Positions 7,736 to 10,010 of a stretch of 45,838 nucleotides of DNA are shown piece after piece. The notes under the pieces were generated by a model. That model did no database searches, was not told where the DNA came from, and saw only the letters and a list, made by a program, of their open reading frames with translations. This stretch comes from a phage: assembly GCA_014143165.1 (NCBI GenBank), contig GCA_014143165.1_4843.1; one strand, 5' to 3'. Position 1 is the stretch's first letter. Every line of letters starts with the position of its first letter. The translations under genes were made by a program, and so were the position numbers.

Positions 7736-7764
7736 TTGACACCTGTGAGGTGGTGATGTAGATT
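7736..7764 (+). promoter_or_regulatory. Sigma70-type promoter TTGACA-17-TAGATT (rightward)
   Basis: TTGACA at 7736-7741, 17-nt spacer, TAGATT at 7759-7764. The first plus-strand gene starts at 7788. Confidence 0.65.
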
Positions 7765-7787
7765 CAAGTCATCGAAACGAGGTATGA

Positions 7788-7994
7788 ATGAGGTTAGCTA
7801 TGGACGTTGTTATTTTGTTGTTTTTTGTTGGCTTGGTGATATTTGCGTACCTTCTGCCATCTTTTGTGGCCCTGCAACGCAAGCACGTAAACACGACTGC
7901 AATCTGCGTACTGAATATTCTTGTCGGATGGAGCTTTATTGGATGGGTTGCGGCACTGGTTTGGGCATTGGTTAAAAGTGGCGACAAGAAATGA
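7788..7994 (+). CDS. Small membrane protein, superinfection-immunity (Imm_superinfect-like) family
   Basis: 68 aa with two TM segments. NILVGWSFIGWVAALVWAL matches the GW..GW..AL.WA signature of the small superinfection immunity protein family. Confidence 0.6.
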   Translation: MRLAMDVVILLFFVGLVIFAYLLPSFVALQRKHVNTTAICVLNILVGWSFIGWVAALVWALVKSGDKK

Positions 7995-8134
7995 ACGAGC
8001 AAACAAAAGCAGACCTGATTTTCTACACTGAACTGTATGTTGATGCAGGTTACGACTATGAAGAAGCTGAACGCATGGCGAAAGACTTACTCCGCGTGAT
8101 TGGTGTTATTTTTGATGAGGACAAGGTGATATGA
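7991..8134 (+). CDS. Hypothetical small protein (47 aa)
   Basis: Hand-translated: MNEQTKADLIFYTELYVDAGYDYEEAERMAKDLLRVIGVIFDEDKVI. ATGA overlaps with both neighbours suggest translational coupling. Below the ORF-track cutoff. Confidence 0.4.
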   Translation: MNEQTKADLIFYTELYVDAGYDYEEAERMAKDLLRVIGVIFDEDKVI

Positions 8135-8331
8135 GCCAGTGGATTAAGTGTGGTGAGATGCTTCCTGGCGATGGGTATACGGATAAGGAGTTCCTGGTGT
8201 ATGAAATGTTGAATAACGCAGTTCAGCATGATTATTACATCGTTCCTGATGATGGTAGAAAGCCATTCTGGAATCACTATGGTAAGTACGTGACTCACTG
8301 GATGCCACTACCAGAGCCACCACAAGAATAA
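8131..8331 (+). CDS. DUF551-like protein
   Basis: 66 aa with WIKCGEMLP near the N-terminus and VTHWMPLPEPP at the C-terminus, the hallmark of DUF551 phage proteins. Confidence 0.65.
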   Translation: MSQWIKCGEMLPGDGYTDKEFLVYEMLNNAVQHDYYIVPDDGRKPFWNHYGKYVTHWMPLPEPPQE

Positions 8332-8361: not shown

Positions 8362-9078
8362 TCAGGATACGGTGCAAGCCGTGCTCAGGATAACTTCAGG
8401 GTCAGTAGATGAATCAGTTACCGTAACGGTATACACGCCAGCAGTTGGGCTTGCCAGTGATGCGCCAGATTCGCCGCCAACAACCGCGCCATCTTTGCGC
8501 CATACATAAGTGTAAGGTGTAACGCCACCCTCAACAGCAACAGTTAACGGGCTGCCAGTGCTGCCAGTTGATTGCAGGTCGGTGGTGAATGCCAGAGGTT
8601 CAAGGCTTTCAATTGACACCGTATCGCCGTCGTAAGGCTTGAACTCAACGGAACCGGTGACAATATCGTTTGTTCCACCTTCCCATGACAACCCGGTGAT
8701 GTTGCAGTACGCGGTGGTGATGGTGCTGCCAGTGACTTGACGAACCCACAGAGACGGTTGCCTGCGCGCACTCATCTCAGTGGTGAACATCTGGATTAGT
8801 TTATGAATACCATACTCGTCTGATTTATCATTTTTTTTAATTTCAAAATCACCGCTGATAGTCATGTCCGCTGTTGTCACCAGAGTGGCGACGAAGCCGC
8901 TATTGGTATCAGCTTCACTTGATGTGGTATTAGGGCTGAAATCAACCCCGTTATTGGTGAGTGAGCCAAAATACTTCCAATCTTCCTGTGACGGTTCTGC
9001 ATCTGAGCACCCGTCAGCAAGGAAGATTCGCATCATTCTTCCCACCAGAATTCCGTTGTTATTTGCACAAATAGCCAT
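8362..9078 (-). CDS. Major tail protein with C-terminal Ig-like domain
   Basis: 238-aa ORF upstream of the chaperone/TMP genes. The C-terminal ~80 aa (LTVAVEGGVTPYTYVWRKDGAVV...GVYTVTVTDS) look like a bacterial Ig-like domain, as is common on siphovirus tail tube proteins. Confidence 0.75.
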   Translation of the reverse strand: MAICANNNGILVGRMMRIFLADGCSDAEPSQEDWKYFGSLTNNGVDFSPNTTSSEADTNSGFVATLVTTADMTISGDFEIKKNDKSDEYGIHKLIQMFTTEMSARRQPSLWVRQVTGSTITTAYCNITGLSWEGGTNDIVTGSVEFKPYDGDTVSIESLEPLAFTTDLQSTGSTGSPLTVAVEGGVTPYTYVWRKDGAVVGGESGASLASPTAGVYTVTVTDSSTDPEVILSTACTVS

Positions 9079-9114
9079 TTCGATCTCCGAATTGTGTTAG
9101 CTGCTAACGTGGTG

Positions 9115-9123
9115 ATTATATCA
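9115..9123 (-). promoter_or_regulatory. Extended -10 promoter TGATATAAT (leftward, drives major tail gene)
   Basis: The reverse complement of 9115-9123 is TGATATAAT, about 37 nt upstream of the ATG at 9078, with GGAGA as SD. Confidence 0.55.
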
Positions 9124-9129
9124 CAGGTG

Positions 9130-9158
9130 TTGACAGTGATTATTTTGTGGTGTAGATT
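9130..9158 (+). promoter_or_regulatory. Sigma70-type promoter TTGACA-17-TAGATT (rightward, drives the non-coding unit)
   Basis: TTGACA at 9130-9135, 17-nt spacer, TAGATT at 9153-9158. The flanks share blocks with the 7713-7770 promoter cassette (GATTATATCA, GGTGTTGACA, TGTAGATT, AAGTC). Confidence 0.65.
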
Positions 9159-9164
9159 AAAGTC

Positions 9165-9640
9165 TACTTAAGATATGAATTGATTTATGCGTGAGTTTTC
9201 AACTTTCTGAAAGGAAGGTGACCAAAATGAATGAAATCTCAATTTGAAGAGGTCAAAATAATTAGCGGTCGAGAGACGCCGGACGCGTAACCGGCACACA
9301 ACAGGTAAGAGCATTGGTGTACCAGAAGCCCGTGGGTTATGGCTAAGGAGTCCCAAGTGAGCGCATAAGTGCTCTTTCCGTTGTGGTGAATGCGCAGGCT
9401 GATGCGCGAAAGACATTGCAGCTATTGCGGAAAAGAGCTGTTCGGCGGGGCAATTAAACGCCCGTGAGAGTCTGAAATAACCGCAAGCCGGAGATCAGCA
9501 CCGGCCACCACAACACTTAATATCCAGCATTATCGCAATCATATGTAGGGGTATGTATGGGTTACGGGGCTGGATATTAAGAAAGCACGCTGGCAATGCT
9601 TAAACCAGTAATAAGGCCGCCAAGTGCGGCTTTATTTATT
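9165..9640 (+). ncRNA. Candidate structured non-coding RNA (~0.47 kb), class unknown
   Basis: Bounded by the promoter at 9130-9158 and the terminator at 9613-9640. No plus-strand ORF exceeds ~25 codons. Multiple hairpins are present: 9278-9282/9291-9295, 9359-9364/9369-9374, 9392-9396/9403-9407, 9419-9423/9436-9440, 9487-9491/9501-9505, a perfect 13-bp stem 9516-9528/9569-9581, and 9583-9587/9597-9601. Confidence 0.45.
9613..9640 (+). terminator. Intrinsic terminator of the non-coding unit
   Basis: GCCGC-CAAGT-GCGGC (9616-9630) followed by TTTATTTATTT. The opposite strand lacks a T-tract, so it should act mainly on rightward transcription. Confidence 0.7.
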
Positions 9641-10010
9641 TAACAACCCGCAAAAGCAACTCATGCACAGGTCTTTTTTCTTCCGTCAGCATTGGCCTAC
9701 CGAGCGGAGCCTGCAACTGGATGTAGTTCACGCACAAATCAATCGGATGCGTCTTGATGTATTCGATAATCTCATTGGCTTTAGCGTCAACATCCGACAC
9801 GTTATACTGTCCATGTTTGCCGACAACGTACAGCGAGAAATAAAAGTCACCACCAAGTCCATCCATCACCTGCGTGCCGCCGTTGGATTGCAGGACAATA
9901 AATTGCTCGTTGCCATTTTCGGTGTCATTCCAGAACTGCAATTGCGAAGTCCAGCCATCATACAATCCAGCATCCTGAAGATATGCATCAACCAGCTCAA
10001 GCATATTCAT
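9636..10010 (-). CDS. Tail completion / tail terminator-like protein (positional)
   Basis: 124-aa ORF, last of the head-tail joining block before the major tail gene, with an ATGA overlap with the upstream gene. Confidence 0.5.
   Translation of the reverse strand: MNMLELVDAYLQDAGLYDGWTSQLQFWNDTENGNEQFIVLQSNGGTQVMDGLGGDFYFSLYVVGKHGQYNVSDVDAKANEIIEYIKTHPIDLCVNYIQLQAPLGRPMLTEEKRPVHELLLRVVK

Follow-up and report, generated by a model that had tools for sequence, protein, structure and literature searches.

The species 1 and 2 RNAs of phage T4 have had no known function for decades, GOLLD and ROOL are structured non-coding RNAs (ncRNAs) often found in prophages beside transfer RNA (tRNA) genes, and YrlA contains a tRNA-like module. 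In the engineered tRNA scaffold, in mascRNA and in the tRNA-miRNA units of MHV68, a tRNA-like body serves processing and stability and a foreign arm replaces the anticodon stem; we know of no natural counterpart of this scaffold in a bacterial phage. In a 2014 survey, genes for transfer-messenger RNA (tmRNA) were found among phages only in mycobacteriophages and Bacillus phage G, and an RNA made of the tRNA-like domain (TLD) only, a type known from mycobacteriophage DS6A, is reported to inhibit tmRNA, perhaps by titrating SmpB (PMC4131195). Here we analyse a stretch of phage DNA of 45,838 nt (contig GCA_014143165.1_4843.1), called the window in what follows, from a siphophage of the Jersey, Skate or Shuimu type. 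A gap of 557 nt separates its major tail gene (8362-9078, minus strand) from a gene of the tail-completion type (9636-10010, minus strand), and a first-pass annotation had proposed that this gap encodes a structured ncRNA of about 470 nt. The gap is best explained as a rightward stable-RNA operon, not a protein gene. It contains a tRNA-shaped module of 135 nt (9380-9514, plus strand), named the D-core, which may be the body of a tRNA mimic.

A conserved tRNA-shaped fold in a non-coding locus

The D-core is a conserved paired structure. Its closing stem P1 pairs 9380-9388 with 9506-9514, the conserved 7-bp part being 9382-9388 with 9506-9512. Inside P1, the plus strand carries the junction AAU (9389-9391), hairpin A (GCGCA-GGCUGA-UGCGC, 9392-9407, loop GGCUGA at 9397-9402), a variable arm of 79 nt (9408-9486) and hairpin B (GCCGG-AGAUCAGCA-CCGGC, 9487-9505, loop AGAUCAGCA at 9492-9500). 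The two loops would kiss through GCUGA/UCAGC (9398-9402 with 9495-9499), as covariation of the pairs 23:50 and 22:51 indicates. All seven helices listed in the first-pass annotation are exact or near-exact reverse complements, including a perfect 13-bp stem at 9516-9528/9569-9581, and two of them, 9392-9407 and 9487-9505, are the conserved hairpins A and B of a widespread RNA module.

Copies of the D-core have a conserved 5′ block, (CAGUGCUCUUUCC)GUUGUGGUGAAUGCGCAGGCUGAUGCGC, a conserved 3′ block, AAGCCGGAGAUCAGCACCGGCCACCACAAC, and an insert between the two. Copies unbiased for P1 and hairpin B were collected by scanning one genome per bacterial species with a 20-mer that covers hairpin A only. 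Hairpin B was almost invariant in these copies while P1 was fully changed between lineages, with GUUGUGGUG/CACCACAAC, GUGUGAUCU/AGAUCACAC, GGAGAG/CUCUCC, GGAGCCG/CGGCUCC and AUGCAGAU/AUCUGCAU as pairs. Pairing was counted in 68 diverse scaffolds aligned after removal of their inserts (alignment A3), with partners slid by 1-3 columns and 500 shuffles as controls. D-core cells were paired in 95.7% of cases, against 28-47% for the slid controls, and covariation as high as observed was reached in 0 of the 500 shuffles. P1, hairpin A and hairpin B were 90-100% paired, and the inner P1 pairs had each undergone 15 to 34 double-sided changes. Exactly seven P1 pairs are kept (93-100% paired), pairs 8 and 9 being down to 60-68%. 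Compensatory variants were also found for hairpin A (GCGUA/UACGU, GCGAA/UUCGC, GCGGA/UCCGC) and hairpin B (GCAGG/CCUGC, GCUGG/CCAGC, GUUGG/CCAAC).

Because the search had fixed loop A in the first sets, so that the contact could not vary, loop-A variants were scanned separately. Loop B had compensated by an A-to-G change (UCGGC, AUCGGU or ACGGC) in six of the eight copies with loop A GGCCGA, and it read UCAAC in the single copy with GGUUGA. A kissing interaction between loops A and B is thus supported by covariation. Since the contact covaries, both loops are constrained by the fold and not by an invariant recognition sequence. As for the strand, G.U pairs greatly outnumber A.C pairs on the plus strand, both in the D-core and in the neighbouring U hairpin (9297-9385, see below). 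Over 67 distinct copies of the latter, the stem totals 70 or more G.U and about 13 A.C pairs, and this excess identifies the plus strand as the RNA strand.

The D-core resembles a tRNA (RF00005) in several ways. Its 7-bp closing stem runs without a linker into the 5-bp hairpin B, like an acceptor and a T stem stacked over 12 bp; hairpin A, of 5 bp, comes 3 nt after P1, at the position of the D arm; the loop-loop contact forms an elbow; and the helices meet in a four-way or three-way junction. It differs from a tRNA in that the place of the anticodon arm is filled by an arm of any sequence, 6 to 176 nt long, and in that G18G19 and the T-psi-C loop sequences are lacking, the elbow being a 5-bp Watson-Crick kissing helix. 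In phage CECAV048, hairpins A and B are replaced inside the same P1 (GUUGUGGUG/CGCCACAAC) by a D arm, AGCUCAAUGGCGAGCU, and a T arm, CAGGUUCGAUUCCUG, both canonical. By its topology (7-bp acceptor stem, abutting 5-bp T stem, D arm) the D-core is a tRNA body. It lacks the anticodon arm, the canonical loops and the recognition by gene finders that define a tRNA, and the G3.U70 pair and ACCA end that define a tmRNA. As in the tRNA gene clusters of phages, it is adjacent to and co-oriented with genuine tRNA genes of the same cassette, where these are present. This was the case in 8 of the 9 tRNA-bearing loci from IMG/VR among L008-L067, and adjacent, co-oriented tRNAs were also found at the bacterial loci L232, L259 and L299 and in phage RCS47.

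The locus that carries the D-core lies between a promoter and a terminator and is non-coding. The sigma-70-type promoter described in the first-pass annotation is present on the plus strand (TTGACA 9130-9135, 17-nt spacer, TAGATT 9153-9158; 10 of 12 matches), and in alignment A1 four relatives have no change anywhere in 9079-9158. A twin promoter is found at 7736-7764; the two cassettes can be aligned across about 80 nt and are paralogues, as had been noticed. The twin drives three small rightward open reading frames (ORFs; window 7736-8331). The first of these, 7788-7994, has 68 aa with two hydrophobic segments, and its counterpart in CECAV048 (L002 1200-1394) is annotated 'superinfection immunity protein'. 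At the other end, the terminator-like hairpin that had been described is also present on the plus strand (9616-9640: GCCGC-CAAGU-GCGGC, stem 9616-9630, plus UUUAUUUAUUU), the stem being followed in the DNA by the T-run TTTATTTATTT. A terminator scan tool called the hairpin at 9616-9630 for the minus strand only. The same terminator ends the cassette in phage ASO78B, 3′ of its tRNAs, and in CECAV048.

On the plus strand of 9160-9640, the longest open stretch is 40 codons; the first-pass annotation had seen no ORF longer than about 25 codons there, and its view that this strand is non-coding stands. The minus-strand ORF 9168-9416 (82 codons), which it had judged not to be a protein, is interrupted by two stop codons in IME207, the closest deposited relative (98.4% identity across 9100-9614), and is therefore not a gene. 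Together, the short plus-strand openings and the interrupted minus-strand ORF make the region non-coding. The chance that a protein is nevertheless encoded here, by the 82-codon ORF or a small plus-strand one, seems negligible to us, even though a 'hypothetical protein' is annotated under the match in some deposited relatives: besides the two stops in IME207 and plus-strand openings of at most 40 codons, unrelated inserts of other lengths replace the middle of the region in relatives. For annotators, 'hypothetical proteins' called across the locus are most likely spurious. The fold of the whole 476-nt transcript is better than that of shuffled sequences (z = -2.9, 0 of 100 shuffles equal it), and the comparative evidence for RNA structure is much stronger than this folding of a single sequence.

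Comparison with related genomes and the covariation count thus uphold the proposal of a structured ncRNA, with helices conserved through compensatory changes and no intact protein. What does not hold is its description as one monolithic, phage-specific RNA of about 470 nt, as the cassette is a string of exchangeable modules. The phrase 'moron whose cargo is RNA', by which the first-pass annotation had characterised the locus, is a fair description.

Spread, arm exchange and genomic settings

Inserts of the D-core ranged from 6 to 176 nt (median 74); those of 157 distinct copies formed 96 sequence clusters unrelated to one another, the minimal copies having an insert of 6-12 nt. The arm is thus modular. 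A sub-segment of 150 nt (9366-9516) is 96-99% identical to unannotated intergenic DNA in unrelated phages, a degree of identity which points to an RNA module of ~150 nt that these phages have exchanged horizontally not long ago. The allele with the window's arm lies just 3′ of cI in lambdoid phages (mEp460, Stx2 phages) and, in the P1-like phage RCS47, directly 3′ of tRNA-Asn and tRNA-Thr; it was also found in Klebsiella phages and in 851 of 5426 complete Escherichia coli genomes, the conserved 5′ block being present in 628 of the 5426. The 135-nt core 9380-9514 is therefore shared, with this very arm, well beyond the phage of the window. RefSeq annotation had no feature under the matches to the window arm or the 5′ block listed in E. 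coli genomes. Copies of the window's D-core allele that are 96-99% identical, 79-nt arm included, are carried by a virulent Jersey-like phage, lambdoid and Stx2 phages, a P1-like phage-plasmid and E. coli (for instance at L004 2501-2650, L005 3001-3150 and L006 3001-3137).

The module was found in more than 200 viral contigs of IMG/VR, exact-word scans with either end of the segment giving at least 120 each, and in more than 100 bacterial species of the Gamma-, Beta- and Alphaproteobacteria and other groups (one genome per species, hairpin-A 20-mer). Host groups among the matches listed were Enterobacterales, Pseudomonas, Xanthomonadales, Halomonas, Burkholderiales and other Betaproteobacteria, and Rhizobiales; a few Desulfo-, Bdellovibrio-like and other assemblies were also among the hairpin-A 20-mer matches listed. 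Twelve loci with the 20-mer GAATGCGCAGGCTGATGCGC and without the module or P1 were set aside as a coding-sequence coincidence, a chance look-alike of hairpin A (L247, L251, L262, L266, L300, L301, L306, L308, L310, L328, L338 and L342). They share a repeated CATGTCGAT context, CATGTCGATSGCSA-...-GCCGGACATCAGCTCGGCGAACAC, in Xanthomonadales, Rhizobiales and related genomes.

Some arms recall known RNAs. One arm family (...AGCUAGAUGGUGAGGUAAUGGCUCACCAUGGCGACGA...) is like helix 11 of 16S ribosomal RNA (rRNA), with 90% identity over 29 nt (E. coli rrsH nt 254-282); it comprises the arms of L063, L072, L082, L085, L159, L162 and L215, and the segment also occurs elsewhere in L373, L406, L450 and L458. 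Hairpins like a T arm were found in 4 of 239 variable arms. Mimicry of rRNA or tRNA is real but rare, with this one helix-11-like cluster and the four T-arm-like cases, and was rejected as a general property of the arm.

ORFs were clustered around 336 D-core copies to survey their contexts. Four settings recurred, with the neighbouring genes always in the orientation of the module. In 70 loci a cI-type repressor lies 5′ of it, and in about 50 loci it is flanked by the Q antiterminator, with NinG and RusA, on one side and by the holin, endolysin and Rz genes on the other. In the third setting it is part of a tRNA cluster, and in the fourth, which is that of the window, it stands alone behind a promoter of its own. 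The copy of HK620 is bounded by the annotated pR′ promoter and the late terminator. The linkage of the module is to tRNA genes, where these are present, and to highly expressed positions of phage operons. The first-pass annotation had considered an antisense brake on the tail genes among the possible roles. That role has no support: elsewhere the same module follows cI, separates Q from the lysis genes or belongs to a tRNA cluster.

Patchy distribution, copies 96-100% identical in unrelated phages, short direct repeats (CACAAC...CACAAC) that flank the unit and tandem arrays would all suit a DNA-level element, either a small mobile element or a boundary of recombination modules, in which the RNA fold is incidental. 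We consider this very unlikely. Four helices and a loop-loop contact are kept by compensatory changes across bacterial classes, the G.U excess is found on one strand only, the module is always oriented like the local transcription and the tRNA genes, and no transposase or integrase was linked to the module among the ORFs around the D-core copies. A miniature mobile DNA element of the MITE, REP or ERIC-like kind was rejected on such grounds: strand-specific G.U excess, covarying helices with a kissing loop, and an orientation tied to transcription.

Neighbouring modules and the tag templates of relatives

The order of modules in the cassette is best explained as promoter, decayed tag-template module, U hairpin, D-core, one more long hairpin and terminator. 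The U hairpin (9297-9385, plus strand) is laid out as CACAAC-A-GGUAAGAGCAUUG, a variable tip, and (C)AGUGCUCUUUCC-GUUGUG. In the window these are element X (CACAAC, 9297-9302), a 13-bp stem (GGUAAGAGCAUUG 9304-9316 with AAGUGCUCUUUCC 9367-9379), the tip (9317-9366) and element X′ (GUUGUG, 9380-9385). The stem is present in the minimum-free-energy fold of the whole transcript, and in 67 distinct copies it is 80-93% paired, with A-U to G-C compensations and one conserved U.U mismatch. Many of the variable tips end in a canonical T-arm hairpin. Just before CACAAC comes a small hairpin (GCCGG-ACGCGUAA-CCGGC, 9278-9295, plus strand), an equivalent of which stands at this place in many loci, e.g. 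GCCC-GGUGUGAUUAAUAAU-GGGC or CUCC-ACGAAA-CGGAG.

X′ is also the outer part of P1, so that two pairings, that of the U hairpin and that of P1, compete for GUUGUG. The three strands involved are 9297-9302, 9380-9385 and 9509-9514 in the window; in Pseudomonas, CCGAUGC/GCAUCGG play these parts at L244, L292, L304 and other loci. Units also occur as tandem arrays, and the three-strand alternative pairing could be a switch in cis or a by-product of such arrays. This raises the question of a role in cis. The fold could recruit RNase P and RNase E to cleave polycistronic transcripts of the phage and cap 3′ ends, as a processing, punctuation or insulator element, or else the X/X′/X pairing could be the switch, the released RNA having no function of its own. 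The module does sit where operons join: behind cI, between tRNAs, or in the pR′ leader ahead of the late terminator and the lysis genes. Enterobacteria and Pseudomonas both preserve, in different sequences, the alternative pairing of the P1 5′ strand, and the variable arm is dispensable, as inserts of 6 nt show. We grant this explanation a modest chance. It leaves unexplained why the cassettes of the window and of CECAV048 have their own promoter and terminator, with no downstream gene to process or regulate, and no regulated gene recurs throughout the contexts. Arms that are long, well folded and specific to an allele are moreover kept at 96-99% identity in unrelated phages, which suggests that the arm matters.

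On the 3′ side of the D-core comes the perfect 13-bp hairpin with its 40-nt loop (CUUAAUAUCCAGC/GCUGGAUAUUAAG, 9516-9581, plus strand), at the position of the U hairpin that follows the D-core in RCS47. As it is nearly invariant in IME207, ASO78B and CECAV048, it offers no covariation to judge it by. One or more short hairpins (AAGCA/UGCUU or GCUGG/CCAGU, 9583-9611, plus strand) make up the last conserved segment before the tRNA-Ser and tRNA-Arg of relatives. In IME207 and ASO78B, tRNA-Ser and tRNA-Arg(UCU) start after ...AAACCAGCACUAAAU and precede the same terminator, while in the window and CECAV048 the terminator follows the short hairpins directly, those tRNAs having been lost. More generally, the same gap holds tRNA-Ser, tRNA-Arg or tRNA-Met genes in deposited phages related to that of the window.

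Relatives also carry a tmRNA-like module, the M unit, with a tag template. It gave sub-threshold matches to the Rfam tmRNA models, in the tag region only (27 bits for a cut-off of 47). The template, ...UUUUCGU..GCGACUUUGCGG..UUUAGAAACUGACCACAAAGAUAAAU|GCA AAC GAU GAU GUU GUU CUG AUG GCG GCG UAA, encodes ANDDVVLMAA. Variants of the tag are ANEEMYLAVA, ANDEQFLAVA, ANDDLMLMAA, ANDNTFLAVA and ANEERFLMAA; the differences are synonymous or conservative, and the pattern is A-N-[DE]-[DEN]-x-x-L-[AMI]-[AV]-A. The SsrA tag of E. coli is ANDENYALAA. The stop codon of the template lies inside a hairpin, and an H5-like hairpin and a covarying pseudoknot (CCGA/UCGG, CCAG/CUGG, CCAA/UUGG) follow the template. 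A 24-mer of the template was found in at least 120 viral contigs of IMG/VR. In Jersey-like and Klebsiella phages the M unit stands behind the same promoter as in the window and starts about 12 nt after it, and in HK620 both template and D-core lie between pR′ and the late terminator. Such templates stand alone in enterobacterial phages and are located at L001 2560-2700, L351 1530-1700, L005 2330-2470 and in loci L353-L445.

The 5′ leader of the window (9165-9262, plus strand) can be read as a degenerate M unit. In alignment A2, UGACCAAAAUGAAU|GAA of the window stands against UGACCACAAAGAUAAAU|GCA of ASO78B, HK620 and RCS47, and the frame equivalent to that of the resume codon is cut to GAA AUC UCA AUU UGA (9233-9247); in this alignment the pseudoknot was not seen in the window's leader. 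The leader segment is identical in IME207 and absent in CECAV048. The mini-ORF MNEISI of the first-pass annotation is indeed present at 9227-9247, with GGAAGGTG 5′ of it. The role of leader peptide suggested for it is not supported, as it aligns with the position of the tag template in the tmRNA-like module of relatives and looks degenerate in the window. We read the leader, mini-ORF included, as a decayed copy of the tag-template module, the degenerate template spanning 9195-9262.

Could the D-core, or a U hairpin bearing a T arm, then be the charged tRNA-like domain of a phage trans-translation system that has decayed in the window? Tag templates lie 200-850 nt 5′ of D-cores and have conserved tags, an H5-like hairpin and a covarying pseudoknot; the Rfam tmRNA models align to them, though below threshold (27 vs 47 bits), and the 24-mer recurs in at least 120 viral contigs; and the D-core has, like the TLD of tmRNA, a tRNA shape without the anticodon arm. 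We think such a system unlikely. P1 has no G3.U70 pair in any lineage inspected and an encoded CCA is rare. As the template is not inside the tRNA-like domain but 5′ of it, cleavage by RNase P would separate the two. A D-core lies within 1.1 kb of only 42 of the 98 templates and 31 are without any tRNA-like partner, while a template is present in only 20 of the 336 D-core loci. Finally, the threshold of ARAGORN had to be relaxed before it called any tmRNA, and the tRNA-like domains of these calls are doubtful.

Related candidates were rejected along the way. An obligatory coupling of tag template and D-core is ruled out by the 20/336 loci and 42/98 templates. Neither an alanine identity nor a regularly encoded CCA was found in the D-core, the 3:70 pair being U-A or A-U in all lineages inspected and CCA being present in 3/79 and 7/106 copies. 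In the tmRNA calls made by ARAGORN at the 85% threshold around the templates of relatives, the tRNA-like domains were unconvincing, and some lay within coding genes. At default settings the tmRNA finders did not call the tag templates of relatives, and no tRNA-like domain with G3.U70 and ACCA was found near the templates. The U hairpins all have the same stem sequence, so that the 5′ strand of one could pair with the 3′ strand of the next. Such U-to-U pairing would enclose the tag template in an outer/inner helix topology like that of tmRNA, and it is this fold that ARAGORN proposes at the 85% threshold for L024 (785-1087 of the extract).

Possible function and comparison with known RNAs

With a probability of roughly 0.55, we favour the reading that the cassette is a phage stable-RNA operon encoding a tRNA mimic, matured and acting in trans as a look-alike or as a scaffold for the arm. 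The transcript made from its own promoter would be cut by the host RNase P on the 5′ side and trimmed by exonucleases on the 3′ side, where CCA might be added. The predicted product is a discrete processed RNA, a compact and nuclease-resistant tRNA look-alike, which would act in trans on a host factor that reads the shape of tRNA or tmRNA and not the anticodon. Its role would be that of a decoy or competitor, for which the reported inhibition of tmRNA by a TLD-only RNA offers a precedent; alternatively, the tRNA scaffold would stabilise and display the variable arm. Transcription, processing and the action in trans are what we infer from the comparison of sequences.

Several observations weigh against such a tRNA mimic. 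Canonical D- and T-loop sequences are absent from the D-core, and neither ARAGORN nor the Rfam tRNA model gives a match at the module. An encoded CCA at tRNA positions 74-76 is rare (3/79 and 7/106 copies), CC at positions 74-75 being present in about 18-25% of D-core copies. In some Pseudomonas copies P1 is as long as about 17 bp, which resembles a closed stem more than the free end of an acceptor. The P1 5′ strand also has an alternative partner, a second copy of the P1 3′ strand that lies upstream (CACAAC in enterics, CCGAUGC in Pseudomonas). No partner protein family was constantly linked to the module among the ORFs around the 336 copies, which means that any partner must be a host factor or the RNA itself. 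Nor did the arms hint at a target: 2.9 Mb of phage and prophage DNA contained no protospacer-like matches, and a role of the arm as guide RNA or spacer was rejected on this basis.

More speculatively, and with low confidence, phages of Proteobacteria would carry a toolkit of exchangeable translation-mimic RNAs that interfere with, or replace, host ribosome rescue and tRNA surveillance, in infection and lysogeny. Its parts would be the kissing-loop tRNA look-alike, U hairpins resembling minihelices and stand-alone tmRNA tag templates. These could, for example, titrate SmpB or tRNA-targeting defence nucleases, or add phage tags to nascent proteins, and the hypervariable arm would be an evolving determinant of specificity.

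If the tRNA mimic is real, annotation has so far missed a compact RNA fold that about one sixth of E. coli genomes carry and that prophages in many bacterial classes share, and tRNA-like and tmRNA-like RNAs would join tRNAs as phage cargo expressed from the cI operon, the late leader and stand-alone promoters. As HK620, P1-like phages and E. coli prophages carry the module, experimental entry is easy, and it would open the way to two questions: the role of the stable RNAs other than tRNAs in phage tRNA clusters, and the handling by phages of host systems directed at tRNAs or ribosomes.

Searches for a described equivalent were made in several ways. The whole window gave no match at the gathering score to the 4227 models of Rfam 15; the first-pass annotation had assigned the RNA to no class. 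At E<=10, the region 9050-9700 gave chance-level matches only (Leu_leader with 19.6 bits vs 50, and rydB with 13.7 bits on hairpin B), and at E<=5 nothing relevant was found in D-core copies with inserts of 6-25 nt. On the window, ARAGORN called neither a tRNA nor a tmRNA. Hammerhead, HDV-like and twister ribozymes, considered by eye for the string CUGAUG...GAAA, were dismissed: GAAAGAC is part of the variable arm, the strands of the junction lack conservation, and the ribozyme models of Rfam gave no match. A riboswitch or attenuator was also dismissed, the contexts being heterogeneous and the window cassette ending in a terminator with no co-oriented gene downstream, although the X/X′/X pairing does exist. 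In mEp460 (L004 1-184), isrK (67 bits) and C4 antisense RNA (56 bits) were found above the Rfam threshold on the other side of the immunity region; these are ordinary prophage RNAs, unrelated to the module. RCS47 (L005 3706-3826) has a sub-threshold STnc100-like match, of 38 bits for a cut-off of 47, 3′ of the plp/upl genes. Full-text literature searches with the conserved strings, the tag peptides, phage tmRNA and structured-RNA surveys gave no description of the module, the catalogue of 10,006 IMG/VR candidates in PMC10690425 not having been compared; the module may sit there unnamed. It differs from the Pas sRNAs, which are Hfq-bound RNAs (bioRxiv 10.64898/2026.05.13.724894).

Among described RNAs, the TLD of tmRNA, in its two-piece form or as the TLD-only RNA of DS6A, shares with the D-core a tRNA shape without the anticodon arm and a large insertion, and transcripts of relatives carry, like tmRNA, a tag template and then a pseudoknot. 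The D-core departs from it in having no G3.U70 pair, ACCA end or canonical T loop, and in that the template is outside the domain and often absent. The species 1 and 2 RNAs of T4 (rnaC and rnaD) are, like the module, small stable phage RNAs at the end of a tRNA cluster. The first (L230 1409-1547) has a canonical T-arm hairpin near its 3′ end, and the second (L230 1554-1672) contains GUCGGACUGAUGG and ends in CACCA; for both, the resemblance to the module is only conceptual, inspection by eye, with no formal comparison, having shown no homology of sequence or structure. To our knowledge they are limited to T4-like phages, while the module spans many phage types and bacterial classes.

GOLLD, ROOL and YrlA are comparable as structured ncRNAs whose function is unknown or partly known. 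They differ in that none of them gave an Rfam match at the module, which is much smaller than GOLLD and ROOL, and no Ro/Rsr gene was seen nearby. In its design logic, the D-core is closest to the engineered tRNA scaffold, to mascRNA and to the MHV68 units, which are artificial or come from eukaryotes and their viruses, its own role as a scaffold being a prediction only. Should that prediction hold, the D-core would be a natural example of the same principle, a tRNA-shaped body with a freely exchangeable arm.

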